Source: Mustelus asterias (Eukaryota). Taken from it: a DNA stretch of 64,000 nucleotides. Below the pieces are notes generated by a model, which did not search any database, was not told the origin of the DNA, and worked only from the letters and a program-made list of their open reading frames with translations. The stretch lies in assembly GCF_964213995.1 (NCBI RefSeq), contig NC_135830.1:9858001-9922000 (forward strand), in the 5' to 3' direction. Within the stretch, counting starts at the first letter, position 1; every line of letters begins with the position of its first letter. The translations under genes and the position numbers were made by a program. Of this stretch, positions 181 to 56,910 are shown piece after piece.

Positions 181-580
181 CTTCCGCATTGTGACGTCCA
201 CAATGGAGCCTGCCTGAATGACCCAATAAGAATCAGTCTCTTCCGCAATTACGTCATGGGGTTCCAGTGCGCAGGCGCGAGGACCCGGGAGCTCCGCCCC
301 CACCTATTGTTCCCCCTCCCCCTGCACATCTTCGAGCCAAGGTTTGCAGACAGCCGGCTGGCGGGAGCGAGAAGCCGCTTGGAGATTTCCCCCGGCCCGG
401 GACTGCGCATGTCCGGGGAAATGGGACACTGCGCATGAGCGGGGTAGCCCGCATCCTGACCTGAGGTGTTGACCAATGGGAAGACCTGGAGGACCGGAAG
501 GACACTGGTCCTCCAGCAATCAGGTCTTTGTGACGCTCAGATTGAGCTGCACACAGACTGAAACTTCCTCCTGTCTGAAG
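181..580. promoter_or_regulatory. CpG-rich promoter / non-coding first exon of ZNF-1
   Basis: CCAAT at ~223 and ~473, TGACGT/ACGTCA, GC box ccgcccc ~294, tgcgcatg at ~403 and ~430, GGAGGACC-N11-GGTCCTCC at 488-514; homologous to 38831-38950 and 34090-34155. Confidence 0.7.
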
Positions 581-747
581 TGAGTTATTTTAGATGACAT
601 GAATTACACTTCTGAGGATTATGCTTCATATCCCAGATGAAGCGAGGTACCTAAGTATGTTTTATTCTCCAAACAAGCGGTCAGATGACATCGGACTCTG
701 GCGGATAACTTATTTATCACTTATTTCCTTAAAAGAGGCCAACATCT

Positions 748-868
748 CGCTTTTTCCTTTGTACTTTGATTTCTGTTCTGGCTGCTCCCCCTCCTTTTGG
801 GGAGCTGCCCCTTTTACTTTGTCCCGATTTAATTTGAGTTTGTTTATTTGGTTTGACCTTAAAAGAGG
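748..868 (+). mobile_element. Tx1-like LINE 3' UTR fragment
   Basis: Matches 20310-20430 (3' UTR of the Tx1 copy); ccttaaaagaggccaacatct is duplicated at 727-747 and 857-877, just before a GTGAGT donor at 878. Confidence 0.75.
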
Positions 869-1438
869 CCAACATCTGTGAGTAACACACTTTCTCCCCC
901 CCCCCCCCCCCCCACCCCTTTCCATTTCTTTTCTCATTCTGGGGGAAATTGGGGACTTGCAGCAACTGAAGGGAAAGGAAGTGAATCCAGGGAGGCTGCA
1001 GACTCTGGAAAGGTTGGCCCAGGTCTCTCTCTTAAAGACATTGACATCCTTTGCTTCCTCAGCTTGACTCATTTATTTATCTGGCTAAAAGGATGGTCTC
1101 TTTCCTGATGTTCACATTTAAAGGCTGGTTTCCACCGGAGATGGCTGACATTTAAGGGAACAATAAACTAATATAGGACAGAGATATGTCGAGTTTTGTT
1201 CTATTGTACAGATTAGATTTTATTTATGGTCCTGCAATAAAGTACATTTATTTGGAAAGAAAGCGAAGATGAGGTGGGATTTCTTCACTCAAGGATGTGG
1301 TGAAGTTTTGGAATTCTTTACCTCAGAGGACTGTAAAGCTCAGTCATCAAGAATTTTCAAGTGAGGGTTTGATAGGTTTATTCAAGATATCAAGGGATCC
1401 AGGGGATACTGTGGGGAAAATGGTGCTCAGGTACATCT

Positions 1439-1757
1439 GGGCGGCACGGTGGCTCAGTGGTTTTCATGGCTGTCTCACAGCGTCACGGACCTGGCTTCCA
1501 TTCCTGGCTTGGGTCACTCTCTGTGTAGAGTTTGCATGATCTCTGCGTGGGTTTCCTCCAGTGCTCCGGTTTCCTCCCACAATCCAAAGATGTGTGGATT
1601 GGATTGATTGGCCATGATAAATTGACCCTTCGTGTTAGGGGATTCGAAGGGTAAATATGGGGGGTTACGGGGATTGGATCTGGTTGGGATTGTTGTTGGT
1701 GCAGGCTCGATGGGCCTAATGCCTTCCTTCCGGACTGTAGATTCCATGATTCTATGA
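1439..1757 (+). mobile_element. HE1/V-SINE-like tRNA-derived SINE
   Basis: ggggcggcacggtggctcagtgg tRNA-like head, gggtttcctcc..gtgctccggtttcctcccaca core, gattctat tail. Confidence 0.85.
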
Positions 1758-1825
1758 ATGGTTGAGCGGACTCGATGGGCCGAATTGCTGATTGCAGCTC
1801 CTTTTAGTTATGATTTGTGTGTGCT

Positions 1826-2060
1826 GGACAGGAAGCAGTGAGCATGGATCTGTCAATCAGCCTCAATCAGTACCTTCAGGAGAATTGGGAGGGTGAATAT
1901 TAGATACAGCAGAGTGAGAATGGAGGGAGAGTGTGTGGGATGGAGATTTACAGCTTTTGGGGAATGAGAGAGGAAAGAATGTTCCATAGAAACTAGAACT
2001 GTCTGTTCTGAATTTCTATCCTGCACTGACACTGATGGCTTTTATAAACTCCTTTTACAG
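1826..2060 (+). promoter_or_regulatory. Conserved ZNF intron block ending in splice acceptor ttttacAG (2060)
   Basis: Near-identical to 20965-21198 and 33306-33530 (minus); partial copies precede ZNF-6, -7 and -10. Confidence 0.8.
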
Positions 2061-2402
2061 GATATCAGAAGGTGAAGATTTACAGACAGAAATCTCAAAC
2101 CAAATAACTGACAGAGTCACTCAATTCATCTGGACCTGAATATCATCAGCCTTTGAATCTAGAAGGAGAAATGTTTCTCTGTTCTGTCTGCGAGAGAAGA
2201 TTTTAAACATCAGCATCACTGGAAAAGCACCAAGACACAGACACACTCAATTGAGAGTGTTCCAGTGCACTGAGGAAAAAGCTTTAACCAGATACACAGC
2301 CCGAAAATACATCGCAGCATTCAGTGGGGAGAGACTGTACTTGTGTTCTGTGTGAGTTTTAACTGATTGTTTAACCTGGAGAGTCACAAGGACACCCGCA
2401 CC

Positions 2403-3329
2403 ATGGAGAAACCGTGGAAATGTGGGGACTGTGGGAAAGGATTCAAAGCTCCATCTGATCTGGAAATTCATCGGCGCAGCCACACTGGGGAGAGGCCGTT
2501 CACCTGCTCTGTGTGTGGGAAGGGATTCACTTTATCATCCAGACTGCAGAGACACCAGCAAGTTCACACTGGGGAGAGACCGTTCGCCTGCCCTCAGTGT
2601 GGGAAGGGATTCAGTCAGTTTTCCAACCTGCGGACACACCAGCGAGTTCACACTGGGGAGAGGCCATTCAGCTGCTCTCAGTGTGGGAAGGGATTCACTC
2701 TGTCATCCAGCCTGCGGACACACCAGCGAGTTCACACTGGGGAGAGACCATTCACCTGCTCTCAGTGTGGGAAGGGATTCAGTCAGTTATCCAACCTACG
2801 GACACACCAGCGAGTTCACACTGGGGAGAGACCATTCACCTGCTCTCAGTGTGGGGAGGGATTCAGTCAGTTATCCAGCATGCAGACACACCACCGAGTT
2901 CACACTGGGGAGAGGCCATTCACCTGCCCTCAGTGTGGGGAGGGATTCACTCAGTCATCCCACCTGCGGACACACCAGCGAGTTCACACTGGGGAGAAAC
3001 CGTTCACCTGCTCTCAATGTGGGGAACGATTCACTCAATTATCCATCCTGCAGATACACCAGCGAGTTCACACTGGGGAGAAACCGTTCACCTGCTCTCA
3101 GTGTGGGAAGGGATTCACTGACTTATCCAACTTGCAGAAACACCTGCGAATTCACACTGGGGAGAGGCCATTCACCTGCCCTCATTGTGGAAAGAGATTC
3201 ACTGACTCATCCAGCCTGCAGAAACACCAGCGAGTTCACACGGGGGAGAGGCCATTCGTCTGCTCTCAATGTGGGAAGGCATTCAGTGTTTCATCTGCCC
3301 TATTGAGACACCAACAAGTTCACGAGTGA
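2403..3329 (+). CDS. C2H2 zinc-finger protein ZNF-1, 11 tandem fingers, no effector domain seen
   Basis: accATGg start, [14 protein letters not shown], 11 CxxC-x12-HxxxH units with TGE[RK]PF linkers, TGA at 3327-3329. Confidence 0.92.
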
Positions 3330-3589
3330 TTCCAGGGGTTGGATTCTGCTGTTGTTGTTCCTGCTCTCAGTTACATCCAGGACTGCATTTTATTCATTCT
3401 CACAGTTGGTCAATGGGGAGGGTCAGAGGGTTTCTTTCTGCTGGACTGGTCGGTCTCATGATTTTGCCTCCAGTGGGCTGATGCTCTTTGAGTCTTGTTG
3501 CGAATACCTGGTTTCAAATTTCACACGGATCACAGAGTGACCGGGTGTTAGGAAGTTCAGAGATATTTAGTCAGCATTTCTGTTTGAAA

Positions 3590-3900
3590 CCTCCCAAATG
3601 CCCATCCAATTTCCTTTGTAATTGTTTATTGTCTCCACTTCCTCCACCCTCGTAGGCAGCGAGTTCCAGGTCATTACCATTCGCTGCATCAAAATATTCT
3701 TCCTCACATCCTCCTCACCCCCCCCCCCCCACCTGCATCTCTGACCCAAAACCTTAAATCTGTGACCCCCTCGTCCTTGTCCCATCAGCGAATGGGAACA
3801 GCTTTTCTTTGTCCACCTTATCTAAATCTGTCAGAATCTTGTCCACCTCTATCAAATCTCCCCTCAACCTCCTTTGCTCCAAGGGAAACAACCCCAGCCT
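3590..3900 (-). mobile_element. Degenerate CR1 3' fragment
   Basis: Minus ORF 3567-3785 contains QRMVMTWNSLPTRVEEVETI, a CR1 ORF2 C-terminal signature. Confidence 0.7.
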
Positions 3901-4739
3901 GACATTGACAATAAAGAACAAACTAACAGAATATGTTAATACCTGAAATCAAATGGGAATGTTTAATTTCTGTTTTAAAGATATTGTAAATATATTGTCC
4001 TGGACAATAAAGGAATTGGAATAACTCACCTTGGGTGTGGTTGAATGGAATATATCAATCTGATATCCACCTACAGTCTAGTGAAAGTCTGGAATGTGTA
4101 GCTGGAAATCCCTCCCTAACAGCACTGTGGATGTCCTGACACCTCAGGCATTGTAGCAGTTCAGGAAGGCAGTGTTGGGGTTGACCATGGCCGAGGCAGC
4201 TACATACAGCCACATATCCTGTTATAGTTGAAGGACAGCAGATTGAATGTGAGGCATTATGGGACTGGACTACCTTGACCACATTCCTGTGACTGCTCAG
4301 TTTCTGCAATCACGGACCATTAAAGCTGCTTAGCAGGGCCCCGATAGAGGACCTGGTGAGAATATTTACTCAGAAGAGTTAGAGGTAAATTTGTTCAGCG
4401 GCTGAGATACCAAATCTGTGAACAGGGGGTCTGACCAATCAACAAACAATCAACAGTTGACTAAAAAATTAAGAAGCGTTCTCATGCATTGTTTAAATCA
4501 ATTTATCCTAAATTTGTGATAAGAACTGTGAGGGACTTGTGACCCAATAGTCGGTGGTGACGGTATACTCCAAGTAGCACTGCACTGAAAAGCGGACCTC
4601 TGAGAGTAGATTCTAATGGTTATAATCCTACCCAAGCATGGCCAGTGAAAAATCAGAGCTCAAGTGGGAACCGGACAGGTCTCTTACCTGCTATTTGGAA
4701 ACTAAGAACAAGAAACTTATCGATTAAATGATTCGAGAA

Positions 4740-4905
4740 TAGAACCAACGTTTCGAGTCTGGATGACACTTCGTAAGAGCGCTTATGAAGGATCATCCAG
4801 ACTCGAAACATTGGTTCTGTTCTCTCTCCACGGATGCTGTCAGACTTGTTGAGATGTTCTGGCATTTTCTGTTTTTGTTTCAGATTCCAGCATCCGCAGT
4901 ATTTA
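4740..4905. mobile_element. Penelope-like terminal repeat (family 2), inverted pair
   Basis: aacgtttcgagtctggatga faces its complement tcatccagactcgaaacatt; the same repeat occurs at ~5980, ~8040, ~17715, ~20620, ~47330-47575 and ~51645. Confidence 0.6.
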
Positions 4906-7509
4906 ACTTTTACGATAAAATGTTTAATCAAAATAGAGGGAGTGGTGGCAAAAAGATAAACAGGGTAAGGATGATAAATTCTGGGTTCTGATTCTCCGAG
5001 CCCATATAGAATTTTTAAAAATGAGTGAACCAGTTTATAAAGAACAGAAGTTACCCATCCCTAACAAAAACTGATCATATTAAAATAATTAAGGTGAGGA
5101 ATATAACAAAAATATTAATAGATGAAGTTTAAAATCAAGTTTGTTTTATTGTTAGAGAAGTTTTTTAAACTTGTGTAAAGTGATGTAATTGTGTGCCAAG
5201 TTTTTGCTGCTCACCCCCCACCCCTTTAGATTCTGTAGAAAAGTTCACCCTTTCAGCACACAGCTCATTTGTTTTTAAATTGCCTGAAAACTCATGTATA
5301 TTTTAGTTTATAATTGAAGATTTATGGGAATTTGCTGAGGTAGCTGTTTGACATTTTTAAAGGATTGAAAAGTGGTCTTGAGAAGCCACTTTGGTAGAGA
5401 GAGGTGGAGGGAGAGATGTTTACATAGAGGTGTTGAGAGCTGTTGGTTTTACAAGTTATCCCCATTTTCAGAGCCGTCACTTCATGTCCTGGTCTGAGAG
5501 GGAGAGAAGTCTGTTCAACTGTTAAAGTAAAGCTTTCTTTATTAACTCTTAATCGATACTTTGTTTTTTATCTTTCTGACTTGGTGCATTTTTAATGGTG
5601 AATAAACTTTCTGAATTCACCATTTAAAGTGTTCTTTCTTGCCATATGGTTAAGTCACTGGAACCTGGTGTGATTTACGATGAGGGAGGTTATTGTAAAT
5701 AAGAGAACCCCCATAAATCTTAGTTCAAATAAATCAAAGTTCTTACAAATGGAATACAATCCGTTATTCCGAGAAAAATTGAACATAGAAGTAAAGATGT
5801 TATACTTCAGTTATACAGGGCATTGCTGAGGCCACATCTTGAAAACTGGATGTAGTTTTTGTCTCCCATTTAAGAAATGATACAAATGCATTGAAAGTGG
5901 TTCAGAGGAGGTTTAATAGATTGCTTCCCAATTGTTGACCCTTACAGTATAACTTTTGTCCAATTTTCCTTGTCTTCAGCTGACAAAGATTCATCCTGAC
6001 TCAAAGTGTTGTCTCTATTCTCTCTCTACAGATGCTGTCAGACTTGCTGAGATTCTCCAGCATCTTCTGTCTCTGTTTCAGATTCCAGCAACAGCAGAAT
6101 ATTGCCGTTATCCCAATTCTTATTGGATCAGGGAATCAAAAGTATCGGCTGTAGAATGAGAATGTGGAACTCCACACAAACAGATCAGCCATGATCTAAA
6201 TAAACGGTGGAGCAGATTCAAAGGGCCAAATGGCCGACTTCTGCTCCTATATCGAATTTGGTAACAAATTCCTGAAAATTGCAAAACAAGGCTGGAAGAT
6301 TCGCCTTGCTTGTGTTAGTGGGAAAATGTCCAGGAGAACCATCACTGTGAAGGACAGTTCTGGGATTAAAGGTTGCCAGACTGGAAAAGGAAAACAATGG
6401 AAATAAACCCTTGAGGAGTAAAGAATCACTTTGGACTCATTCTTGGAGAATTGAGTGTCAACATTCCAAGGCAGAGTAAAATATAACCGTTGACTGGGAT
6501 ATTTCATTGTGTTAAGAGTAAAAGGGCAAAGTTCAATTTTTTAGTTTAAGGGCAATGTTCCCTACGAAGAACAGTGTTTAGTCATTGTTGCTTCCAGTTT
6601 GTTGGAGTAAACATCATAGAACCTGAAGTTTTGTCTTGTGATTCTTTAATTTACTCACTGGGTTTAGAATTCATTTTTAAAAATTATCGATCGTTAGAGA
6701 GATGCTAACAGTTCATTTAAATTCCTGTGTTTCGACTTCCCATTTGAGCCTGGGGCACCTTTCTGTCTCTCTATTGCTCGTGTCAATGACAGCCAGGCAA
6801 CGGAGCTGAGGGCTGAATTTAGCTGAGAATAATGGGGCCTGCGCCCCAGTTGGGAAACTGCCCTGGGCGTCGCACTGATAGAGAGACAGGAAGGTGCTGG
6901 AGGACTGAGTGGGAAATGGGCCTCCAACCAATTGTTATATCAGTCACTCAGAGCTAAAGAGAAACCCGTCTCTTTAAATACAGATACAGGGAAGAGGCTG
7001 CACTGAAATCTGTCCCTTTTAACCTGCACAGAAGCAGGAGGCTGAGATTGACAGGCTGCAGGAGTCCATTTAGCCCATCATGCCCCTGCTATCTCTTTGA
7101 AAGGATTCATGCTACCACTCTGCCCTGTTCCCACAGTCCTGCAAATTCTTCCCTTCAAGTCTTTACCCTTTGGAAAGATTCTATTGAATCTGCTTTCAGG
7201 CAGATCAGAACAACTCGCTGTGTCAAAAAATAAAATAAAATCTCATCTCCCCCTCTGGCTCCTTTGCCAATTACCTTAGAGGGACTCACTTTCTGTTAAA
7301 GAGCCTGCCAACCCCTCTCACCCACTTTCCCTAAAGTGCATCAATCAGGAAAAGACCAGAAAAATCAAATATTTTTACTGATAAAATGTATTAATGAAAC
7401 AGAACATGATTAAAACAAACAGAAAATGACTTGAGGATCAAAGACAACCAGAGTAAAAGGATGTTCACAATGTTCTGGACACAAATGGTTTCTCTTGAAT
7501 TCATCTGTA

Positions 7510-8145
7510 GCCTGTTCCCTGCCCTCTTTGTGGAACACCTCTGCTCAGTCCACAAGCATGACCCTGACCTTCCGCTTGCCATTAGAATTCACCACCTTGC
7601 TCTCACACTCACATTTCTGTCCTCGGCCTGCTGCAATGTTCCGGAGAAGCCCAACACAAGCTGGACAAACAGCCCCTCATCTTCCGATGAGGCACTTTAC
7701 AGCCTTCTGGACTCAACATTGAGTTCAACAACTTCACACCCTGAACTCTCTCCTCCATTTTGATTTGTTTTTATTTGCTGAGTCAGCCTGCATCTTGTTT
7801 TCATGTTTTTTTCCTTCCAGACAGAGCTGTCCTTTATTCTGCCATTAACACTTACTCTGGACCAATGCTTTGTTTCTTTACCACAACCATTACCTCTCCC
7901 TTTGCCTTTTATTCCAGAACATTTTTGTCATTTAATCTTCACCCGCCCTCTAACCAATCCCTGACTTTCCCTTTTGTTCTATCTGACCCTCCCCCCTTTC
8001 TCACCAGCATCAAACCCATCACATTTCTCCCTCTCTTTATTTCTGAAGTAGAGTTACATTGGACGTGAAATATTAACTCTGTTTCTCTCTCCACAGATGC
8101 TGCCAGACCTGCCGTGTTTTTCCACACTTTCTGTATTTATTTTAG
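7510..8145 (+). mobile_element. Decayed Penelope-like element 3' end (family 2)
   Basis: Remnant reading ..LIFR*GTLQPSGLNIEFNNF, typical of the GIY-YIG C-terminus, followed by the family-2 terminal repeat. Confidence 0.6.
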
Positions 8146-8410
8146 ATCTCCCTGTAATGGGTGGAAAAATACTATTTACGACCCAGGATAAAATAAATGT
8201 CCTTCACCAGCTTTTGTGGATCATTTCAGTGGAAATGTGCTCTCCCAGGCTCAAAAAGCATCAGCCCACTGGAAGCAAAGTCGTGAGAGCGGCCAGTCCA
8301 GCAGAAAGAAACCCTCCGACCCTCCCATTGACGAACAGTAAGAATGAACAAAATGCAGTCCTGATGTAACTGAGAGCAGAAACAATAACAGCAGAATTCA
8401 ACCCCTGTAA

Positions 8411-8640
<230 letters not shown>

Positions 8641-9179
8641 GGTGCCAGTATCCTTGTGTCTCTCCGGGTTGGACAATCAGTTCAAGATTCATCTGCACAC
8701 AGAACATGTACAGTTTCACCTCACTTTGAATGGTGTGATATTTTTTCAAGCTGTGTAACTGGTGAAAGTTCTTTCCACAGTCAGTTCACTGGAACGCGCT
8801 CACTCCAGTGTGTGCATGTGTCTCGGTGCTTTTCCAGTCACACTGATGTTTGAAATCTTTTCCCACAGACAGAACAGAGAAACATTTCTCCATCCACATT
8901 CTAAGGTTGACAGTGTTCGTGTGCTGATAAATTGAGCAACTGTGAAATATTAGTAAGAATTTTGATTTGAGTTTCCTGTCTGTAAAACTTCCACTTCAAA
9001 TATTCTGCAAAAGAAGTTTACAAAATCACTGTCAGTATAGGAAAAAAAATCGAAACAGGCAATTCTCGTTTCTCTGGAATATTTTTTCCTCTCTTGTTCC
9101 CCTAAATCAGTAAATCCCCGTCCCACACACTCTCCCTCCTCCCTGGACTGAAATCCAAACCCATCTCACCATTTCTTTC

Positions 9180-9580
9180 CTCCACTCCCAGTTTTCTCCC
9201 TCCCTCTCCTCTGTCTGGGTTCAGTTCTCCAGCTCCTGTCTGCAGACTGACAATAAAACCAATGGGTCTTATTGGGGGTGTTGGGGCCTCCAGCGGGTGT
9301 TTGTGAATCCTCCCCGCCCACCTCCCAGGGTTTCCTTCCTTCCCAGAGATCAGAGTCCTCATTGATTTGAGGCCAAAGTGTAACCTTATTTATTGTCTCC
9401 CTCCCCCATCCTCTGATGTGAACCATCCTCCAGTGGCTGAGCCAGGATGGGGCCGTTAACCTGGGCCTGTTCCCGGGAGGGAGGGAGGGAGAAGCCCCGC
9501 AGCTGCAAACCAGGGAGCTGACAATGATTCTGAAGGGTTTGCGGATCCACAAAGTGTTTCCAAATCCTCCCAGCCACCGC
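9180..9580 (-). repeat. Duplicated ~400-bp 5'/intron-1 block
   Basis: Nearly identical to 55530-55940. Confidence 0.9.
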
Positions 9581-9630
9581 CTAACGCTGACTCCGCTTCT
9601 CCGGGACAAACAAGCGCCAAGGACAGCAAT

Positions 9631-10240
9631 GACACTGCGCATGCTCCACATCACAATGCCCCGGGACTGATTGACGGCAGCTCCGGACCAATAGGAAGAG
9701 GGGGCGGGGCTGGAGGACCGAGCGGGAGCGGCTGGTCCCCCAACCAATCGGAGTGAATGAGGGGCGGGACTGGAGGAACGAGCGGGAGCGGCTGGTCCTC
9801 CAACCAATCGGAGTGAATGAGGGGCGGGACTGGAGGACCGAGCGGGAGCGGCTGGTCCTCCAACCAATCGCACTGAATGAGGGCCCGGACCAATAGGAAG
9901 AGTTCCCTATTCTTTGCATGGGAGAGATGCACATGCGCAGTAAGCAACGGCGTTCGCAGTGCGGGTGACAGCGACTGGAGAGAAGTTCCTCTGTTTTATT
10001 AGCAGCCGGTAAGGATGCAGAAACATAGAGGGAGCAATGGAAGCGGCAGATGGACGTAGAGGGTTTCTAAATATCTGGTGAAGGCCTCAAACCTCGAATA
10101 TGAGCCCGTAGGTCCCGTGTTTGCAGCTTCAGGTCTTTTTCCCGAGACGAAGCTCAGGTTAACGGCCGCCATCTTGATTCAGCGGGGAGCAGAGCGCACG
10201 CGTTGGTGTCTTGGTGACGCAACCGTGAGTGGGCGGGTCT
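9631..10240. promoter_or_regulatory. Bidirectional promoter core between ZNF-2 (minus) and ZNF-3 (plus), with 3 x 60-bp repeats
   Basis: Outward NRF1-like actgcgcatgc (9634) and catgcgcagt (9932); 60-bp period (9711, 9771, 9831), each unit with CCAAT, GGGGCGGG and the palindrome; GTAAGG donor ~10008; YY1-like gccgccatctt ~10165. Confidence 0.8.
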
Positions 10241-17929: not shown

Positions 17930-18875
17930 ACCGTCACAATGCCCGGCTGATTGACGGCAGCGCGGACCAATGGGAAGAGAAGGGGCGCGGTTGGAGGTCC
18001 GAGCGGAGAGGCTGGTACATTGGGGAAACTATGCAGACGCTGCGACAACGGATGAATGAACACCGCTCGACAATCACCAGGCAAGACTGTTCTCTTCCTG
18101 TTGGGGAGCACTTCAGCGGTCACGGGCATTCGGCCTCTGATATTCGGGTAAGCGTTCTCCAAGGCGGCCTTCGCGACACACGACAGCGCAGAGTCGCGGA
18201 GCAGAAACTGATAGCCAGGTTCCGCACACACAAGGACGGCCTCAACCGGGATATTGGGTTTATGTCACACTATTTCACATAAATATTTCTGCTTTTTTCC
18301 TCCTGAGTCTTTATCATGCGATCCTAGAATCAGAATTTATGTCACACTATTTGTAACTCCCACAGTTGCGTGGACCTGCAGAGTTTCACTGGCTGTCTTG
18401 TCTGGAGACAATACACATCTTTTTAGCCTGTCTTGATGCTCTCTCCACTCCCATTGTTTTGTTTCTTAAAGACTGGATTAGTTGTAAGTATTCGCATTCC
18501 AACCATTATTCATGTAAATTGAGTCTGTGTCTTATAAGTTCTGTTTGTGAACAGAATTCCCACTCACCTGAAGAAGGGGCTCAGAGCCTCGAAAGCTTGT
18601 GTGGCTTTTGCTACCAAATAAACCTGTTGGACTTTAACCTGGTGTTGTTAAACTTCTTACTGTGTTTACCCCAGTCCAACGCCGGCATCTCCACATCATG
18701 ACCTCCAACCAATCACAGTGAATGAGGGGCGGGGCCCGTTCTGACTGGAGCATGCGCAGTGTGGATAATGGCGACGGAGACGGGCTGTTTTTTCGTCTCG
18801 GAGATAGGTCAGAGGTGATTGACGGTACGGAGGGGGCGAGGGATCTCGAGGGTGGACGGAAACGCTGCGTAAGCA
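17930..18875 (+). promoter_or_regulatory. ZNF-4 promoter core split by a Penelope insertion
   Basis: 17930-18015 and 18700-18775 rejoin into the 9650-9960 module; GTAAGC donor at 18869. Confidence 0.75.
18014..18699 (+). mobile_element. Penelope-like element 3' part (GIY-YIG C-terminus plus terminal repeat with hammerhead motif)
   Basis: WYIGETMQTLRQRMNEH..VAEQKLIARFRTHKDGLN; ctgaagaaggggctcagagcctcgaaagc at 18568. Confidence 0.9.
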
Positions 18876-23510: not shown

Positions 23511-23518
23511 ATGCCTAT

Positions 23519-32150: not shown

Positions 32151-32993
32151 TCACTCGTGAACTTGTTGGTGTCTCAGCAGCCGGGATGAAACTGTGAATC
32201 CCTTCCCACACTGAGAGCAGGTGAACGGCCTCTCTCCAGTGTGAACTCGCTGGTGTGTCCGCAGGTCGGATGACTGAGTGAATCCCTTCCCACACTGAGA
32301 GCAGGTGAATGGTTTCTCCCCAGTATGAACTCGCTGGTGTCTCTGCAGGTCGGCTGACTGAGTGAATCCCTTCCCACACTGAGGGCAGGTGAACGGCCTC
32401 TCCCTGGTGTGAATTCGCTGGTGTCTCTGCAGGTCGGCTGACCGAGTGAATCCCTTCCCACACTGAGAGCAGGTGAATGGCCTCTCCCTGGTGTGAATTC
32501 GCTGGTGTGTCCGCAAATGCGACGACTGAGTGAATCCCTTCCCACACTGAGAACAGGTGAACGGCCTCTCCCCAGTGTGAACTCGCTGGTGTGACTGCAG
32601 GTTGGATGACTGAGTGAATTCCTGCCCACACTGAGAGCAGGTGAATGGCCTCTCCCCAGTGTGAACTCGCTGGTGTGTCTGCAGGTGGGATGACCGAGTG
32701 AATCCCTTCCCACACTGAGAGCAGGTGAATGGTCTCTCCCCAGTGTGAACTCGCTGGTGTGTCCGCAGGTTGGATAATTGAGTGAATCCCTCCCCACACT
32801 GAGAGCAGGTGAATGGTCTCTCCCCAGTGTGAACTCGCTGGTGCATCCGTAGGCTGGATAAATAATTAAATCCCTTCTTACACTGAGAGCAGATGAATGG
32901 CTTCTCCCCAGTATGGCTGCGCCGATGAATTTCCAGCTTAGATGGGGCTCCGTATCCCTTCCCACAGTCCACACATTTCCATGGTTTTTCCAT
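32151..32993 (-). CDS. C2H2 zinc-finger protein ZNF-5, 10 fingers
   Basis: [23 protein letters not shown]; acceptor at 33306; close paralog of ZNF-1. Confidence 0.92.
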
Positions 32994-34019
32994 GGTGCAG
33001 GTGATCTTGCCTCAGTTGAAGCCTCGTCCACACACAGAATACGGGTACCGTCTCTCCCAGCTGCGAATGGTGTGATATTTATTCAGGCTGTGTAACTGGT
33101 TAAAGCTCTTTAGTCAGTGCACTGGAACGCTGTTGGTGCTTTTCCAGTCACACTGATGTTTGAAATCTTTTCAAATCAACAGACCGGACAACCATTTCTC
33201 CTTCTAGATTCAAAGGCCAATGATATTCAACTCCCAAGGAATATGATTCTGTTGGGTCTCGATGTGATTTTTGAGATTTCTGCCTGTGATTCCTCTTTCA
33301 ACATCCTGTAAAACGAGTTTACAAAAGTCATCAGTGTCAGAACAGAAATTCAGAACAGACAATTCTAGTTTCTATGGAGCATTCTTTCCTCTCTCATTCC
33401 CCAAAAGCCGTGAATCTCCATCCCACTCACTCTCCCTCCATTCTCACTCTGCTGTATCTAATATTCACCCTCCCAATTCTCCTGAAGGTACTGATTGAGG
33501 CTGATTGACAGATCCATGCTCACTGCTTCCACTCCAGCACATAGAAATCATAAGAAATAGAAGCAACAGTTGGCCATTCAGCCCATCGAATTGCCACAAC
33601 CATTCAGTGAGAATTGGCCGATCTACCTCAGCACCATTTCCCACGCTCTCCCCCAGATCACTCAATGTCTTCAATATCTCAAAACTTATCAATCTCCGGC
33701 TTGAAATTTCTCGATGACTGAGGCTCCACAGTCCTCTGGGGTGCAGAATTCCAAAACTACACCACATACTTGAGTGAGGAAATCCCTCCTCATCTTAACT
33801 TTCTCTCCATTTCCCTACCTGTTTCCCATAACCCTTGACACCTTTATCAATCAAAAATCAGTGTAACTCACCCTGGAATATATTCAATGGCCCTCAACCT
33901 CCACTGATCCCTGTGGAGAAGAAATCCAAACACGAATGACTCTAATAGGCAAGAGATGAATGACTGGAAATATCTAAGGTAGCGACAGTACAATATTAAT
34001 CTGTCTGAAGCTCAATCTT

Positions 34020-34330
34020 CATTCAGAGAGAGAGGAGCAGCAGCTTTGCTGGGCAACAATGGAGGAAGCTCCATGCGGCCATGCACACAAGTCCCAGACT
34101 CTGATTGGCTGGAGGACCAGCGCCCATCTGGTCCTCCACGCGTTGCCATTGGTCAATCTGCCGCATGTGGACAATGAGGGGGCGGTACCCGAGCCCACGT
34201 GGGGGTGGGCGGGGCTTTGACCGCCAGCCGCGCTGAGCTGGTGTCCAATCCGCAGTGTGCTGCTTCTGTAACCAGTGATATTGCTGCCAATGGGACACTG
34301 TGTGCTGGGAACGCCCCTCTGAGTCATTGT
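34020..34330 (-). promoter_or_regulatory. ZNF-5 promoter half (left of the CR1 insertion)
   Basis: ATTGG at ~34104 and ~34148 flank GGAGGACC-N11-GGTCCTCC (34111-34137); GC boxes ~34178 and ~34207. Confidence 0.7.
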
Positions 34331-42871: not shown

Positions 42872-42954
42872 TTACAGGGTTTGGATTCTTTCTCTCTCAA
42901 TCTTTCTCTCTTTCTCTTCCCCCCCCTGCTCTTTCCCCCCCCCCCCCCGCCCAC

Positions 42955-46899: not shown

Positions 46900-47095
46900 A
46901 TTCGAGTTAAAACCGTCCGTCCGTCGCCATTACCCGCACTGCGCATGCTTCAGACCCCTCCCCTATTCACGCTGGTTGGAGGACCAGCCGCTCCCGCTCG
47001 GTCCTCCAGCTCCGCCCCCTTTCCCTATTGGTCCAGAGCTGCCGTCAATCAGTCCCCGGCATTATGACGTTGGGCATGCGCAGTGCGGCTCATGT
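46900..47095. promoter_or_regulatory. ZNF promoter core copy upstream of ZNF-7
   Basis: Reverse complement of the 9631-9960 module; palindrome at 46978-47007. Confidence 0.78.
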
Positions 47096-47324
47096 CCAGG
47101 GACAGGCGCTTGTTTGTCTGATCAGAGGGTTGGTGCAGACTTGCTGGGCCAAATGGCCTCCTTCTGCACCAGAAGAATTCTATGGAGTATGGAAAGGGAG
47201 GGAAGCAGCAGAGGCAGCTGATTGGATTGTCTCAAACTTAGCAACAAAGAAGATCATGAGTTTCTCCTCCTTGAGCATTTGTGGGAGGTGAAGATGGAGG
47301 AAGAACAAGGGGAGATATTTCAAA

Positions 47325-47575
47325 AGGAGCCAAAAGAGAAAATATTGGAAAATCTCAGCAGGTCTGGCAGCATCTGTAAGGAGAGAAAAGAGCTGACGTT
47401 TCGAGTCCAGATGACCCTTTGTCAAAGCTGGTGTTTTGAGCTTTGACAAAGGGTCATCGAGACTTGAAACATCAGCTCTTTTCTCTCCTTACAGATGCTG
47501 CCAGACCTGCTGAGATTTTCCAGCATTTTCTCTTTTGGTTTCAGATTCCAGCATCCACAGTAATTTGCTTTTATC
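47325..47575. mobile_element. Family-2 Penelope-like terminal repeats in inverted pair
   Basis: 47330-47428 is the reverse complement of 47440-47540. Confidence 0.7.
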
Positions 47576-47779
47576 CATATATTTCAAAAGGAATTCATTT
47601 ATGTTGATGTTATTAAAAAGATTCAGTGCACAGTATTGAACACAAAGCTAATTTATTTGACTTTCATCCAGAATATTAACCCCATAACTGGGTTGGATTT
47701 CATCAACTCCAGCAGAAACAGACCTATTGAACACATTTAAGTCCTGAATGTGATTAACAGTAGAATCCGATCACTATGG

Positions 47780-48370: not shown

Positions 48371-48739
48371 GGAGTGACTGCACTAACGTTTCGACAGGCT
48401 GAAGCCTTGTCCACACGCAGAACACATGTACAGTTTCTCTCCACTGTGAATGGAGCTTTTCAGTTCTGTGTTCAAAATCTGACGATATTCAGGCTAGGAT
48501 GCATTCAGCAGCTGTCAGACTTTGATGCGATGATGAGGTTGTTTCCAGACTGTAACTCCTCCCCTTCCGATACTCTGTGAATAGGATTTCAAACAGAAAA
48601 AAAGGAGTGAGAGAGAACCTACAGAAACAAAAAGGCAGGTTGTGAAATTGAGCTGAATGAACCTGGGAATGGGTGGGACCGGCACAAGGTGAAAGTGACC
48701 CTGGCAGCTGTCGCTCTGTCCACATTGGGTGCACATCAT

Positions 48740-49012
48740 TTCCAACTGGAGCCACCTCCACACTGGATGCACACTTTGCCAGCTATGCCACCTCCGCACT
48801 GGATGCACACATTGCCAGCTGGAGCCTCCTCCGCACTGGATGCACACATTGCCAGCTGGAGCCTCCTCCACACTGGATGCACACATTGCCAGCTGGAGCC
48901 TCCTCCACACTGGATGCACACATTGCCAGCTGGAGCCTCCTCCACACTGGATGCACACATTGCCAGCTGGAGCCTCCTCCACACTGGATGCACACATTGC
49001 CAGCTGGAGCCT
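48740..49012. repeat. 37-bp minisatellite, about 7 copies
   Basis: Unit tgccagctggagcctcctccacactggatgcacacat. Confidence 0.92.
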
Positions 49013-49099
49013 GCAACCTGGGACTGGGAAAAGGGATGAAGGAGAAAAGGTAACAAAGCCCCAGAGGGACTGGGCTCTGAGGCATGAGCATGTTTTACT

Positions 49100-49320
49100 A
49101 AGGCGTTTCCCCGCTCCCCCGGCCCCACAAGACGGTTCCATTTCTTCCCCGGCCCCATTCCTCTCCAGTCGCTTCTCACCCGATGTTGATCGAACCGACC
49201 GACACCCGGACCGCGCATGCTCCAATCACAACATTTTTTCCCCCACGCCTGCGCAGTCTCTCCCTGTAGTGAGGATAGAGCACTTTCTGGCCCGCGGAGG
49301 ATGATGGGTAATCACTCCAC
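49100..49320 (-). promoter_or_regulatory. Putative ZNF-8 promoter / first exon
   Basis: CpG-rich; cgcatgc, gcctgcgcagt and CCAAT at ~49222. Confidence 0.5.
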
Positions 49321-49872
49321 CATTAAAGTGCAATTTTGGTAATTCTGTTTTCTGATCCGTTTGCGATTGCATCCAATGATCCAGATATACAATTATCATT
49401 TTTTCTTCATAAACTGCACTTAATTAGTTCTCTGCCATAGTGCTGTCCTGGATATGCTGGTGGCGTTTGCTACCAAATACACCTGTTGGACTTTAACCTG
49501 GTGTTGTTAGAATCCTTCATCTGGATATGGTCAACAGCAACAGCTACATTAGAAACTATCCCTACTCTATGTGATGAAAGAGCTCATTTTATTTTCTGTA
49601 TTAAACACATATATTAATCAAATTCTGAAGGGAGTAACCAGTCATGAAACAGATGATTGTACAATTGATGAACCTTGATTAAGTTATAGATAATGAATCA
49701 ATAATCATATTGGAAAGACTGGATTTTCATTCAAAACTTGTGAAGTTGAATTATTGCATGTCTCTCTGTTTGCGTGAGAAACAGTAATTTCAGACAAACG
49801 GTTCTAATAATGAAGGATCCCTGATAAAGGTCCTGAGGAATGGTACATTACAATGTTTAGTTTGATCCAATG

Positions 49873-50150
49873 TCATAGAGTCATAGAGGTTTACAGCATG
49901 GAAACAGGTCCTTCGGCCCAACTTGTCCATGCCACCCTTTTTTTTAAAAACCCCTAAACTAATCCCAATTGCCCACATTTGGCCCATATCCCTCTATACC
50001 CATCATGTAGCTATCTAAATGCTTTTTAAAAGCTAAAATTGTACCTGCCTTTACTACTACCTCTGGCAGCTTGTTCCAGACATTCACCACCCTCTGTGTG
50101 AAAAAATTGCCCCTCTGGACACTTTTGTATCTCTCCCCTCTCACCTTAAA
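49873..50150 (-). mobile_element. CR1 3' end (same subfamily as 12360-12640 and 63285-64000)
   Basis: FFTQRVVNVWNKLP; gtcatagagtcatag tail. Confidence 0.88.
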
Positions 50151-51229
50151 TAGTGGATAGCAAAGTATTTGAAAGTCAAGAGATTTTACTCTTTTGTATT
50201 CTTGTCTGATGTCCTGAGGTTGGGTGGCCACTGTGCCTAAGAACTAATTGAATTTACCCGAGCAGCAGCTTGAGGTAATTATTTTAACTGAGGAAAAGGT
50301 TGACTCTGACACAGGGTGCTGGCCACTCAGGGGTGAAAAGTCAGGGCTCCATAATGATTTGTGGCTGGCTGATTAATGAAGACACTCACTCGAGGCAAGA
50401 ATCACATGTACATCTCAGCAAGTGGGACTGTGTCTGAGACAGAGTCTTGAGAGGGGAGCACTGTGATGGATCAACACCTCGATAAAGTTGTAAAAATCAT
50501 TGTCTGATTTGATTTGATTTATTATTGTCATATGTATTAGCATACAGTGAAAAGTATTGTTCTTGTGTGCGATACAGACAAAGAGTACCATACGTAGAGA
50601 AGGAGAGGATGCAGAATGTAGTGTTACAGTCATAAGAGTTAGAATAAAGTTTTAGAAGCATAGAACGAGTCAAAGATAGAATTAGAGGGTATGCTGGGCA
50701 CAACTTGCAAGAAGTTGCCACACTCCAGCACCATCTTGGAAGTTTTCCTGAATTGATATGCAAATCTCTTTCCTTTAATAATAATTTTAATGTTAATTTA
50801 ATGTTGTAAAATTTATTATTCAAAGAATCCTGTCCTGCCTTAATTAAGTCTTGTTTGAACAGACATTTTCTTTTCATGGGGTGTGGGTGTCACTGGCCAG
50901 ACCAGTATTTTTATTGCCTATTCCTAATTGCCCTTGAGGTGGTGGTGAGCTGCCCTTCCTGAACCGCTGCAGTCCCTGTGGTTTGAGGGACACTCGCAGT
51001 GCTGTTAGAGAAGGAATTTACTCAGTCATTCGCAGATTGGGGCGGCTGAGGTTAGTTGTGTTACTGATAAGAAAATCAGAATACAATCAGATAACACAGG
51101 TGGGAAAGACAAAAAATCTACTCTGATGTTTTAATCAAGCTGATTTCACATTTATCCAGAATATTACACTACAGCCCAGTTCGAGGAGTTATTAACATCA
51201 GCAGAAACAAACTCCAACTGTCAGAACTG

Positions 51230-53280
51230 AAATATAGAAAATTCACTGAACAGCAGGAGGCCATTCAGCCCATCAGGTCTGTGCTGGCTGGAAAAGTACT
51301 GTCCAGTTTCACCCTACTTTCCAGCTCTTGATCTGTCCCTCTGTGTGTTACAGAATCTCAACTGCCTATCTGAGTTCCTGTTTAATGTGATGAGGGTTTC
51401 TGCCTCTCCCGTCCTTTCAGGCAGTGAGTTCCAGATCCCCATCACTCTCCGGGTGAAATGATTCCTCCACGAACCCTCCTAATTCTTCAATCCTTTATTC
51501 ACTAGATTTGAAAATTGAACAGATTGTAATTATATTAAAAAATCACCAACTGACTTCAGCTTTCTGCCACTTCAGCTTTCATCTGGTAACCAGAACTGTG
51601 CTCAGTACTCCAGCTTGCTCTAACTAGCATTTTATAAATATAAACAGACTATGCTGGGCAACCTCAGCAGGTCTGGCAGCATCTGTGGGGAGAAACAGAG
51701 TTAATCTTTTGGATCTAAATGATCCTTCGACAGAACGTTTTATGAACCGTTTTATAAACATAGAAAATAGGTGCAGGAGTCGGCTATTCGGCCTTTCGAG
51801 CCTTCACCACCATTCAATATGATCATGGCAGATCATGCACTTTCAGTATCACAGTCCCACTTTCTGTCCATACCCCTTGGTCCCTTTAGTCACAAGAGTC
51901 ACATCCAGCTCCCTTTTGAACATATTTAACAAACTGGCCCCAACAGCTTTCTGTGGGAGAGAATTCCGCAGGTTCACAACAAGAAGTTCTTCCTCATCTC
52001 AGTCTAAGATTGTAACCCCGAGTTCTGGACTTCCCCAATATCGGGAACATGTTGGGACAGCATCGAGCCTGTCCAGTCCCATCAGGGTTTTAAATGTTTC
52101 TATGAGATCCCCTCTCATTCTAAATTCCAGTGAGTAAAAGCCCAGTCGATCCAGTCTCTCTTCATCTGTCAGTCCTGCCATTCCAGGAATCAGTCTGGTG
52201 AACCTTAGCTGGACTCCCTCAATAGCAAGAATGTCCTTCCTCAGACTAGGAGACCAAAAATACACACAATACTCAAGGTGTGGCTTCACCAAGGCCCTGT
52301 ACAACTGAGCAAAACATCTTTACTCCCACACTCAAATCCTCTTGCTATGAAGGCCAGCATGCCATTAGCTTTCCTCACTGCCTGCTGTACCTGCATGCCA
52401 ACCTTCAGCAACTGTCCCACCATGACACCCAGGTCACGATGCACTTCCCCTTTTCCTAAACTGCCACCATTCAGATAATAATCTTTCTTCCTGTTTTTGC
52501 CACCAAAGTTGATAACCTCACATTTATCCACATTATATTGCATTTGCCAAGTATCTGCCCACTCAGCCTGTCCAAGCCACCCTGTAGCCTCTAAGGATCC
52601 TCCTCACAGCACACACTGCCACCCAGCTTAGTGTCGGCTGAAAATTGGAGATATTGCATTCAATTCCTTCATCCAAATCATTAATGTATATTATGAACAG
52701 CTGGGGTTGCAGCACTGAACCTGCCGGACCCACTCGTCACTGCTTCCCACTCTGAAAAGGATCCATTTATTCCCACTCTCTGCTTCAGTTTGAGCATAAT
52801 CTCCCTCCTCTTATATACTAGGCTTGGGCCAAATGTCTTCTTGACCACCTGATTGAGACACTTATCAGCCTTGATTGAATTGCAGAGCAGACTCAATGGG
52901 CTGAATGGCCTCATTCTGCTCCTACATATTATGGTCTTATGATATACCTGTCCAGCCTCCTTCACAGATGCCTGGATGTTGACTCCAGGTTCTCTCTGAT
53001 CCTCTATAATTCTCAGCATCATCCCTTTATTGTTCATTCCCTTGTCTTGTCTAATGTCCCAAATTCATTCTCTCTCACTGCTCCAGATCGAATTCCATGT
53101 GCCATTTTTCTGCCCATCTGACCAGCCCACTGATATCTTCCTGCAGTCCACGGCTTTCTTCTGGATTGTTAAACACAAATACAATTGTTGTATCATCTGC
53201 AAACTGAATCATGAGCCTTACATTTAAGTCTAAGTCATTGATGTATACCACAAAACTGTGGAACCTCACTGGTAACCAGA
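51230..53280 (-). mobile_element. Series of CR1 fragments inserted in the ZNF-9 3' region
   Basis: KPHLEYCVYFWSP, MQYNVDKCEVINFG and QFADDT remnants. Confidence 0.85.
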
Positions 53281-53286
53281 CACTAT

Positions 53287-54435
53287 TCAGTCCTGGGTGT
53301 GATTAACAGCAGCAATAACAGCAGAATCCAACCCCTGCTGTCGCCTGTGAACTTGCTGGTGTTTCAGCAGGTTGTTTGACTGAGCGAATCCCTTCCCACA
53401 CATGGAGCAGTTGAACGGCCTTTCCCCAGTGTGAACTCGCTGGTGTTTCAGCAGATTCTGTTTACTTTTAAATCTCTTCTCACAATCAGAACATTCAAAA
53501 GGTCTCTGATCAGTGTGAACAAGTTGGTGTGTAGTCAGGTGGGATGACTGAGTGAATCTCTTGCCGCACAGGAGGCAAGTGTAAGGTCTCTCTCCAGTGT
53601 GAACTCGCCGGTGTATCAGAAGGTCGGATGTATCAATGAATTCCTGACAACACACAGGGCAGGTGAACGGCCTCTCCCCAGTGTGAACTCGATGGTGTCT
53701 CAGAAGGTGAGCTAACCGAGTGAATCCCTTCCCACAGAGAGAGCAGGTGAATGGCCTCTCCCCAGTGTGAGTGTGCTGGTGTTTCAGAAGATCCTTTTTG
53801 CTTTTAAATGTTTTCTCACATTCAGAACAATTGAAAGGTCTCTGATCAGTGTGAACAAATCGATGTTTCAGAAGCTGGGATGAACAAGTGAATCCCTTCC
53901 CACACACGGAGCAGATGAACGGCCTCTCCCCAGTATGAGTGCGTTGGTGAATCAGTAAATCCTTTTTACTTTTAAAGTTCTTCTCGCAATCAGAACATTT
54001 AAATGGTCTCCGATCAGTGTGAACACTTTGGTGTGTCAGGAGGTGGGATGACTGAGTGAATCCCTTACCACACATGTTACAGATGAATGGCCTCTCCCCA
54101 GTGTGAGTGCGTTGGTGAATCAACAAATCCTTTCTGCTTTTAAAGCTCTTCCCACACTCACAACATTTAAACGGTCTCTGATCAGAGTGAACCTGGTGGT
54201 GAGTCCGGAGGTTTGATAAAGCATTAAATCCCTTCCCACATTGAAGACAGGTGAATGGCCTCTCACCAGTATGGACATGCTGGTGTGTGTACAGGCTGGA
54301 TGACTGAGTGAATCCCTTCCCACACACACAGCAGGTGAATGGTCTCTCCCCAGTGTGAATACGTCGATGGGTTTCCAATTCAGATGGGTAATTGAATCCC
54401 GTCCCACAGTCCGCACATTTCCACGGTTTCTCCAT
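53287..54435 (-). CDS. C2H2 zinc-finger protein ZNF-9, 13 fingers plus C-terminal tail RRQQGLDSAVIAAVNHTQD
   Basis: atcATGg MEKPWKCADCGTGFNYPSELETH; acceptor at 54904. Confidence 0.92.
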   Translation of the reverse strand: MEKPWKCADCGTGFNYPSELETHRRIHTGERPFTCCVCGKGFTQSSSLYTHQHVHTGERPFTCLQCGKGFNALSNLRTHHQVHSDQRPFKCCECGKSFKSRKDLLIHQRTHTGERPFICNMCGKGFTQSSHLLTHQSVHTDRRPFKCSDCEKNFKSKKDLLIHQRTHTGERPFICSVCGKGFTCSSQLLKHRFVHTDQRPFNCSECEKTFKSKKDLLKHQHTHTGERPFTCSLCGKGFTRLAHLLRHHRVHTGERPFTCPVCCQEFIDTSDLLIHRRVHTGERPYTCLLCGKRFTQSSHLTTHQLVHTDQRPFECSDCEKRFKSKQNLLKHQRVHTGERPFNCSMCGKGFAQSNNLLKHQQVHRRQQGLDSAVIAAVNHTQD

Positions 54436-54436
54436 G

Positions 54437-54561
54437 ATTATTGACAGGCTATCGGGTGTAGGCGGGATGCAGATTTGAGCTCACTATCAGATCAGCCATG
54501 ATGTTATTAAATGGCGGAACTGGCCCGTGGGGCCGAATGGCCTATTGCTGCTCCTTGTTCA
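54437..54561 (+). mobile_element. CR1 3' UTR fragment inserted at the ZNF-9 start codon
   Basis: agatcagccatgat..ggccgaatggcct..ctgctcct motifs; CATG duplicated at 54433-54436 and 54562-54565. Confidence 0.8.
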
Positions 54562-55529
54562 CATGGTGCCGGTGTCCTCCTGTCTCTCCAGGTTATATAA
54601 TCAGTTGAAACCAGGTCCACACAGAGAACACGAGTACGGTGTCTACCTGATGTAAATGTGCTATTTCTTTTCACGCTGTGTGACTGGTTAAAGCTCTGTT
54701 CCAGCTGACTGTGGAAAAATAACTGAGATGTCTGTGTCTCGGGGCTTTTCCAGTCACACTGATGTTGAATAATTTCCCAAAGACAAAATAGGCAAACGTT
54801 TCTCCTTCCACATTCATAGGCCTTTGAAATTCAGATCCTGAAGAACCATGTGACACTGTCAGATCCCGAGACGTTTGGTTTGAATCGCCCGTCTGCAGAT
54901 ATTCTGGAAAAGGAGTTTACATTGAATTACTTTGAATATACAAGACACAAACAAGCCATTCAGTTTAATTCTTTATACTTGACACATCTTCTCCTGTCCC
55001 ATAGACCTAATCTCAGCCTTTCAGTTGATTTTTCTATTTCTTTTTCTCTCGTGTGTTTCTCCCATTTCCTTTTGAAACAATCTCAGCACTTTCCTCAACT
55101 CATTTCTATGGTGTTTCTAAACCTGTGAGTGAAGACGTTTGTCCTCATTGCCTTCTTGGATTTATTAGTAACTGTCTGGTATTTATGACTCTTTGTTTAT
55201 TGATCGTTCCTTCTTTTAGACTCTGTCACGAGTGGAAACATTCTCTCTACATTTCCCCTGTCCAAGCCACTAATAATTTTAAAGACTTCTATCAGGTCAC
55301 TGCTCCATAGGAAAAACCTTCAATCCATTTAATCTTTCCTGAAAGCTGTAATCTCTGTTGACAAACATCATCACAGTCAATGCAGAATAGAAATCACAGA
55401 GAGACAAACATTCCTCTTGGAGTTGAGTTTTCTGTGTGCAAATCGTCAATTTGTAACAATGTGTAAAAGCAGTTTTCAAACATCTTTCAGTGTCAATCCA
55501 CAATAGAAATGCTGAACAGACAATTCACT

Positions 55530-55940
55530 TTCCTCCACTCCCAGTTTTCTCCCTCCCTCCTCTGTCTGGGTTCAGTTCTCCAGCTCCTGTCTGCAGACTA
55601 ACAATAAAACCAATGGGTCTGATTGGGGGGTTTGCAGCCTCCAGCGGGTGTTTGTGAATCCTCCCCGCCCACCTCCCAGGGTTTCCTTCCTTTCCAGAGA
55701 TCAGAGTCCTCATTGATTTGAGGCCAAAGTGTAACCTCTTATTTATTGTCCCCCTCCCCCATCCTCTGATGTGAACCATCCTCCAGTGGCTGAGCCAGGA
55801 TGGGGCCGTTAACCTGGGCCTGTTCCCGGGAGGGAGGGAGGGAGAAGCCCCGCAGCTGCAAACCAGGGAGCTGACAATGATTCTGAAGGGTTTGCGGATC
55901 CACAAATTGTTTCCAAATCCTCCCCAATGTCCAGCCACCT
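55530..55940 (-). repeat. Second copy of the ~400-bp 5'/intron-1 block
   Basis: Nearly identical to 9180-9580. Confidence 0.9.
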
Positions 55941-56136
55941 GCTGTCCCTGCGGTAAAGCCAGGGCCTGTTTCCTGGGCCAGAAGTTGGTGCTGTTTCCAG
56001 TACAGCCGTGGTTTCCATTCCTATCCTGTGCTCACAAACTCCTCCCGAACCCTCCCCAGCACCATGACTGACACTGAGCATGCTCAGAGCGTGCACCCAC
56101 ACCACCTGATGTGGAGATGCCGGTGTTGGACTGGGT

Positions 56137-56180
56137 GAGTCACCTGATGAAGGGGCGGCGCTCCGAAAGCTCCTGATTCC
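56137..56180 (+). ncRNA. Minimal hammerhead ribozyme motif in a short Penelope terminus (56107-56228)
   Basis: CTGATGA (56144) - A - GGGGC/GCTCC stem II - GAAA (56165) - GCTC, with gagtca/tgattc stem I. Confidence 0.65.
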
Positions 56181-56229
56181 AAATAAACCTGTTAGATGTG
56201 AACCTGGTGTTGTGACTTCTTACTGTGCA

Positions 56230-56910
56230 CACCACACCTGCGCAGTGCGTTCCCAGGCTCCCCAGCGCTTTATCATCTTTGCGCATGCTCCACTCCCAGC
56301 CTGGGCCCGCCCCTCATTCACTCCGATTCGTTGGAGGACCAGCCGCTCCCGCTCGGTCCTCCAGCCCCGCCCCTATTCACTCCGATTGGTTGGAGGATCA
56401 ACCGCTCCCGCTCCGTCCTCCAGCCCCGCCCCCTCTTCCTATTGGTCCGGAGCTGCCGTCAATCAGTCCCCGGGCATTGTGATGTGGAGCATGCGCAGTG
56501 CCTGCGGCAGACGGTAAGGCGCTCGAGCGAGCAGGTTTTAAATGGAGATTTTTACAAAGATCCAGTGCGGATCCAGAGCCCAAAATAAAATTGGAAACAT
56601 AAATGGAGTTGGCGGGTGGATGGTGAGGCTTTATAAACACCCGGTGTCGGCCACAAACCCTCAATTTGCAAAGCAAATTCCTCGGGCCTTCCGAAGGCTT
56701 CAGACCCGAGTTCACATCCGCCATCTTTAGAGGGAACCAAGTATTGCAAAGCGCATGCGCATCCGCCATCTTTGTTGAGGTAAATTGGAATAACGCATGC
56801 GCAGCCACCATACTTCTTGAGGGTGAAACCAAATGAATAACCCACTGGAGACAAAAAAAATCAGACAGTTTGTTATAAAATCAATGTGTTGTTGTAAAAC
56901 CGGAAGTTAG
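56230..56910. promoter_or_regulatory. Bidirectional promoter between ZNF-9 (minus) and ZNF-10 (plus)
   Basis: Two ~60-bp units with ATTGG, GC box and palindrome (56333-56362); NRF1-like gcgcatgcgc ~56751 and ~56795; YY1-like ccgccatctt ~56718 and ~56763; ETS ccggaagt ~56900; GTAAGG donor ~56514. Confidence 0.8.

Follow-up and report, generated by a model that had tools for sequence, protein, structure and literature searches.

ZBTB7A/FBI-1 reads inverted half-sites with flexible spacing. Its sites have been given as G(a/c)CCC (PMC9932118). Among promoter modules with two CCAAT boxes for NF-Y, a 43-bp class has been described, the partner factors of which are unknown (PMC4889920). Here we describe a palindrome of two inverted 9-base arms around a spacer of mostly 11 or 14 bases, found between CCAAT boxes in the promoter regions of C2H2 zinc-finger genes of the shark Mustelus asterias. 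The window, i.e., the whole 64-kb stretch analyzed (contig NC_135830.1, positions 9,858,001 to 9,922,000), is a cluster of C2H2 finger exons. Judging from the sequence, we consider it reasonably probable that the arms are two inverted sites for a putative DNA-binding protein, within an NF-Y-type promoter module that was spread by duplication.

Abundance and anatomy of the promoter cassettes

Five exact copies of the motif lie in the window, compared to none in each of 100 shuffles. The copies reported in an earlier note on this DNA, at 488, 9712-9861 (two with one mismatch), 34111, 46978, and 56333 plus a degenerate one, were all recovered at those positions; a further copy with two mismatches, at 6899-6925, was absent from its list. 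The note had proposed a genome-wide search for enrichment, and this search resulted in 1,952 exact matches vs. 17 for a reversed control. Requiring an additional ninth pair (T...A) and limiting the spacer to 11-14 bases left 642 copies with spacers of 11-12 and 1,138 with spacers of 13-14; among the matches listed with the ninth pair, nearly all spacers are 11 or 14. The direct-repeat arrangement of the arms gave 310 matches vs. 1,670 for its control, with largely minisatellites among the matches listed, and this comparison is uninformative.

The enriched sites concentrate upstream of finger exons. Of 49 merged cassette sites in 1.06 Mb of contiguous blocks, 40 are located upstream of a finger exon and no more than 5 kb from it, compared to 39% of random points (binomial p 1e-9), where the relatedness of the paralogs means that Fisher and binomial p-values overstate independence. 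More than half of the finger exons have a cassette (58/108). The 11-base types mostly face a gene (10 on the same strand only and three on the opposite only, of 26), whereas the 14-base type has no orientation preference (eight same, 11 opposite, of 34). Near-identical 14-base cassettes also occur on many small contigs (L174-L189, contigs C28-C67) with no finger exon nearby, and may be a recent amplified unit or haplotype duplicates.

The cassette is ordered as CCAAT, linker, left arm, spacer, right arm, two bases, and a second CCAAT. The labels ETS-like, DECA-like, NF-Y, and GC box refer to known motifs, and the sites are putative, by pattern. In the 11-base type, the CCAAT boxes are on the same strand and 44 bp apart in 49/52 scorable copies. 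The placement of the motif between CCAAT boxes, as the earlier note had it, thus holds for the family, although at 488, 46978, and 56333 the second box has degenerated. An ETS-like site, CCGGAWG, spans the left arm and spacer in 50/72 copies of this type and takes in only the last two bases of the arm. The 14-base type (0/84 copies with an ETS-like site) has a GC box 5′ of the left arm and a CCAAT spacing of 56-60, and the unit is often repeated in tandem, head to tail, every 60 bases. The DECA-like sequence GAnnGAC was found 52 times in the 84 copies, with a gap to the first CCAAT of 12 in 51 cases and 11 in one. Separately, an old dispersed repeat on large contigs (L196-L206, L212, L213, L215) contains a 16-base CCAAT-linker stretch of the 11-base cassette, without the arms.

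Contigs of sequencing runs from other organisms were compared on a typical 11-base copy (L243); such contigs cannot map transcription starts, and they weakly suggest that the motif lies, for the most part, 5′ of the main start site. Over the motif, the depth of two RNA-like runs is 54-56 and 78-121, respectively. It reaches 338-345 and 407-478 at some 30-50 bases past the second box, a rise of about 4- to 6-fold that is seen from some 20-30 bases past that box. Three contigs of one RNA-like run end, with loose ends, at the predicted splice donor. The pattern is reversed in a DNA-like run (about 8,400 over the motif vs. 2,300), a fourth run resembles DNA, and some contigs start within or before the motif. 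The window copy has a similar depth trend, and the cassette is carried by contigs from all four coded organisms.

Conservation of the arms and the rival explanations

The earlier note held that the arms persist across diverged cassette types while the spacers change, and this is confirmed across three types. When modal sequences of copies with intact arms are compared, the third type being a single copy, the arms are identical between types, and the spacers match at only 7/14, 7/11, and 9/14 positions (with a shuffle mean of 6 when the 11- and 14-base types are paired). Beyond the second box, the next 20 bases match at only 7-9/20. To count changes within types, copies were gathered by their flanks, not their arms, from 1.69 Mb and collapsed at 97% identity, which gave 72 copies of the 11-base type and 84 of the 14-base type (156 in total) after one non-homologous row (L214) was excluded; in an earlier pass, 4/65 and 15/53 rows were excluded as non-homologous ahead of counting. 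On a tree of the flanks, the arms of the 14-base type change at 0.035 per site per copy vs. 0.088 for the spacer, a 2.5-fold difference that is retained without CpG sites (0.031 vs. 0.075). The right arm of this type is better conserved than the left (0.027 vs. 0.043), which is partly an anchoring effect. The spacer of the 11-base type has a conserved half, which corresponds to the ETS-like site. Overall, the arms are probably under selection, though of moderate strength.

Several observations weigh against reading the arms as protein sites under selection. The 11-base arms are no better conserved than their spacer (0.049 vs. 0.052), which is the equal decay that the earlier note had named as evidence against its idea; the 14-base type does not show it. 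Both arms are intact in only 28/72 and 51/84 copies of the 11- and 14-base types, respectively, and there is no deficit of copies in which both arms are changed (13 vs. 11.2 expected; 6 vs. 4.3). A shared reader of both arms would be expected to leave correlated profiles of tolerated changes, and the left and right profiles are uncorrelated (Spearman 0.19, p 0.63, nine positions with few events). The single copy behind the third type is a further weakness. The motif is also missing from 50/108 finger exons, and at 6/12 outlying loci the nearest 10 kb are free of finger exons; thus the link to finger genes is not exclusive.

The lack of protection in the 11-base type is what would be expected if the arms had no role of their own and a young cassette had simply been copied and homogenized, with the symmetry being a relic of one old inverted duplication. 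The many recent near-identical copies are consistent with such passive inheritance, as are other core positions that are alike between types, e.g., in the linker after the first CCAAT. It is harder to reconcile with arms that are identical across three types while the spacers are near shuffle level, with the lower rate of arm change in the 14-base type, and with diverged copies on other contigs that retain the arms after much of the spacer has been lost. We regard passive inheritance as unlikely, although it is the least unlikely of the alternatives. Somewhat less probable still is a composite of ordinary sites without any single reader, in which the left arm overlaps the ETS-like site and the right arm, two bases from CCAAT, abuts the NF-Y box. 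The frequency of CCGGAWG in the 11-base type, the better conserved right arm of the 14-base type (with its anchoring effect), and the uncorrelated profiles all fit a composite. The 14-base type, however, keeps its left arm regardless of the missing ETS-like site, and in the 11-base type the overlap is limited to the end of the arm. High copy number could point to the terminus or an internal part of a transposable element, and a similar but different 9-mer makes palindromes at the ends of Penelope-like repeats (see below). This origin seems very improbable: instead of being dispersed, the copies lie mainly in clusters of finger genes and have paralogous gene flanks, and no flank beyond one end matches a flank beyond the other (0 cross matches).

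The earlier note had also suggested a hairpin or cruciform. Here we considered selected pairing of the arms, either as DNA (a cruciform) or in the 5′ leader of the transcript (an RNA hairpin). The predicted folds are stable, from -20 to -23 kcal/mol as RNA and about -11 to -12 as DNA, with a 7-base loop in the RNA folds of all three types, and some RNA-like contigs cover the motif. An inner spacer pair is swapped from G-C to C-G in 2/84 copies of the 14-base type. The record of changes in the arms makes pairing unlikely: the 156 copies hold 123 one-sided changes, one two-sided change, and no compensated pairs (1.8 expected by chance). Three seemingly compensated pairs all came from the non-homologous row L214 and were discarded. 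Across the genome, pair 4 is changed on one side in 251 copies, and none of 28 two-sided matches has a cassette spacer; by eye, 27 of these are ends of another repeat and one is seemingly unrelated. At pair 6 there are 121 one-sided copies and two cassette-type two-sided copies, one of which is complementary, and this lone compensated arm pair is about the expectation under independence. With the CpG site left out, there is no surplus of changes that would preserve G-U pairing on the sense strand (8 vs. 17; 9 vs. 9). The 14-base cassette faces either way relative to genes, there were no Rfam matches in the window at the gathering score, and 9-bp arms with a loop of 11-14 bases make poor cruciforms. 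A selected hairpin or cruciform is, in our judgment, clearly improbable. We also rejected, as unproven, a redundancy of the two arms, hinted at by zero doubles at pair 4 vs. roughly 4-11 expected (an expectation from a by-eye split of the first 100 of the 251 rows); many of the right-arm changes belong to one clade (18 copies, seven events), and copies with changes in both arms are, as noted above, not rarer than expected.

Features of the window and the interrupted cassette

The coordinates of the motif copies, cassettes, and neighboring exons are given in Table 1.

Table 1. Motif copies, cassettes, and associated features in the window
Feature	Position	Strand	Details
11-base-type cassette	473..520	+	CCAAT 473-477; arms 488-495, 507-514; ETS-like CCGGAAG 494-500; degenerate second box 516-520
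Exact copy, spacer 11	488-514		Pattern search
Predicted first-exon splice donor	580-581	+	Paralog alignment and contigs ending at the homologous site
C2H2 zinc-finger exon, 11 fingers	2367..3326	+	Downstream of the 488 cassette
Fourth, CpG-poor motif variant	6899..6925	+	Two mismatches, then CCAAT
14-base-type cassette	9668..9868	+	DECA-like site (9668), CCAAT, GC box, three 60-bp tandem units
Tandem-unit arms in 9668..9868 cassette	9712-9741, 9772-9801, 9832-9861	+	CCAAT after each
One-mismatch copies	9712-9741, 9772-9801		Pattern search
Exact copy, spacer 14	9832-9861		Pattern search
Left part of 13-base-spacer cassette	17948..18016	+	DECA-like site, CCAAT, left arm, spacer, first three right-arm bases
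Presumed Penelope-like insert, 5′-truncated	18017..18701	+	Divides right arm; microhomology at left junction
Remainder of ordinary right arm and second CCAAT	18702..18713	+
Third cassette type, spacer 11	34103..34151	-	Other linker and spacer; both CCAAT intact; faces finger exon 32154-33011
Exact copy, spacer 11	34111-34137		Pattern search
14-base-type cassette	46978..47051	-	Exact arms 46978-47007; DECA-like site 47042; second box degenerate
Exact copy, spacer 14	46978-47007		Pattern search
14-base-type cassette, two units	56333..56465	-	56392-56421 (two mismatches), 56333-56362 (exact)
Exact copy, spacer 14	56333-56362		Pattern search
Two-mismatch copy	56392-56421		Pattern search
Divergent finger exons around 56333..56465 cassette	53290-54480 (-), 58234-58773 (+)

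In the cassette near 17991, the left arm (17993-18000) carries an A-to-T change, and the earlier note, while calling the junction bases ambiguous, proposed that removal of the insert, placed there at 18014-18699, could expose a compensatory change in the right arm. Empty paralogs contradict this. The right arm is ordinary in the two nearest (91-95% identity) and in three others that have the same altered left arm and a 13-base spacer. The compensated form has no matches genome-wide; a search for arms changed on both sides gave four matches, none of that form. The extra GA at the end of the insert is the commonest ending of such inserts (6/31 copies). The insert is presumably of a Penelope-like family, and its GIY-YIG match is weak (E 0.01, below the Pfam cut-off).

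Head-to-head ends of Penelope-like repeats (window 47390-47460; 27 genome-wide matches) form palindromes with a 9-mer that is one base off the promoter arm. We presume that these ends contain minimal hammerhead-like cores, and there was no Rfam match in the window. Minimal hammerhead cores have been described in Penelope-like elements (PMC6155905).

The fourth variant (window 6860-6960) is CpG-poor and has a single CCAAT, followed about 45 bases further downstream by an AT-rich box. More copies were found on C71 (near 9662581, 10095126, and 18178056) and C87 (near 126676), and at L044 and L053. In 6/7 copies the variant is 3′ of a finger gene and antisense to that gene, with the window copy judged by a remnant at 8480-8622; it could be an antisense promoter or merely a co-duplicated segment. 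At four other places (G000:C71 near 18180601, 18864816, 18896613, and 18933710) no intron separates the first exon of the cassette from the finger region, and the promoter is retained over 300 bases upstream, a possible intron loss. Within the window, 9175-9828 and 55528-56500 share a gene-side flank in the same orientation (97%) and a cassette that is inverted (95%), which we read as one local rearrangement. Recurrent flipping between inverted NRF1-like repeats was considered and is not supported, as both repeats are present in only 19/77 cassettes and there are no cross-side flank matches.

A candidate factor site and its comparison with known systems

We return to the reading of the arms as protein sites. 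The two arms would be candidate sites for one transcription factor, read on double-stranded DNA and kept by selection for binding. Going from a spacer of 11 to one of 14 turns the helix by about 100 degrees, thus each arm may be occupied by its own monomer, or both by a flexible dimer; a rigid dimer appears to be a poor fit with two spacers three bases apart. The cassette as a whole resembles a housekeeping-type proximal promoter, with two NF-Y boxes, a GC box and PBX/PREP-like site in the 14-base type, and an ETS-like site in the 11-base type, and the spacing of the neighboring sites accords with known promoter layouts. The element would lie just upstream of the main start site. Its copies have multiplied through duplication of genes and local tandem events rather than through independent movement of the motif. 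Of the earlier note's interpretation, a conserved and enriched element in paralogous zinc-finger promoter regions stands, with a protein site as its leading explanation; the compensatory change and the hairpin or cruciform do not.

Should the arms prove to be a factor site, about half the members of a very large and little-studied zinc-finger family would share one orphan motif in their promoters, and some 2,000 natural variants provide a ready mutational series. As it stands, with the structural claim removed, this is an orphan motif in an ordinary NF-Y-type promoter module. A stronger version, in which a single dedicated regulator that may itself belong to the family acts through the shared cassette to control a thousand or more shark zinc-finger genes in concert, as a master switch or feedback loop, is doubtful. 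An 8-finger gene (G000:C71 near 10,099,910, minus strand) ends in three fingers that fit the 9-mer of the arms when a loose finger code is applied. This was the only one of 176 arrays with three consecutive fingers fitting the 9-mer, and 19/300 shuffled sites (about 6%) match too. Autoregulation by such an array is a lead only.

A title-level literature search with the arm sequences and for shark or fish zinc-finger promoter motifs found none describing the motif among the titles listed, and the part of PMC8455134 available to us has nothing on these promoters. The arms have GACC in common with the ZBTB7A/FBI-1 site (PMC9932118). A test for its G(a/c)CCC core failed: the arms read GACCG and GACCA, and the third C of GACCC is missing from both arms, whether in the modal sequence of the 11- or 14-base type or in the third-type copy of the window (the next base is G or A). 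The fixed spacing of a homodimer palindrome is not seen either, given the two spacer classes.

The 44-bp box spacing in 49/52 copies of the 11-base type is close to the 43-bp double-CCAAT class, from which the 14-base type (56-60) departs. In the part of that work available to us, Sp1 sites and E-boxes occur between the boxes, not this palindrome, and the data are human, whereas ours are sequence only (PMC4889920). The 14-base type recalls the DECA-CCAAT composite of PBX1/PREP1, NF-Y, and Sp2 (bioRxiv 10.64898/2026.02.16.706105) in its GAnnGAC upstream of CCAAT (52 times in 84 copies). The canonical gap there is 11, compared to 12 in 51/52 cases here, a gap that is tolerated by the models of that paper. 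The DECA-like site is absent from the 11-base type, and it flanks the palindrome without explaining it. Bidirectional housekeeping promoters with NF-Y, SP1, NRF1, YY1, and GABP/ETS sites (PMC10887517) have the same set of motifs, by pattern, as these cassettes. The ETS-like site here is CCGGAAGG and not the strict CCGGAAGTG, and the inverted 9-mer is not in the motif list in the available part of that paper. As in those promoters, the cassettes also sit between divergent genes, in either orientation.

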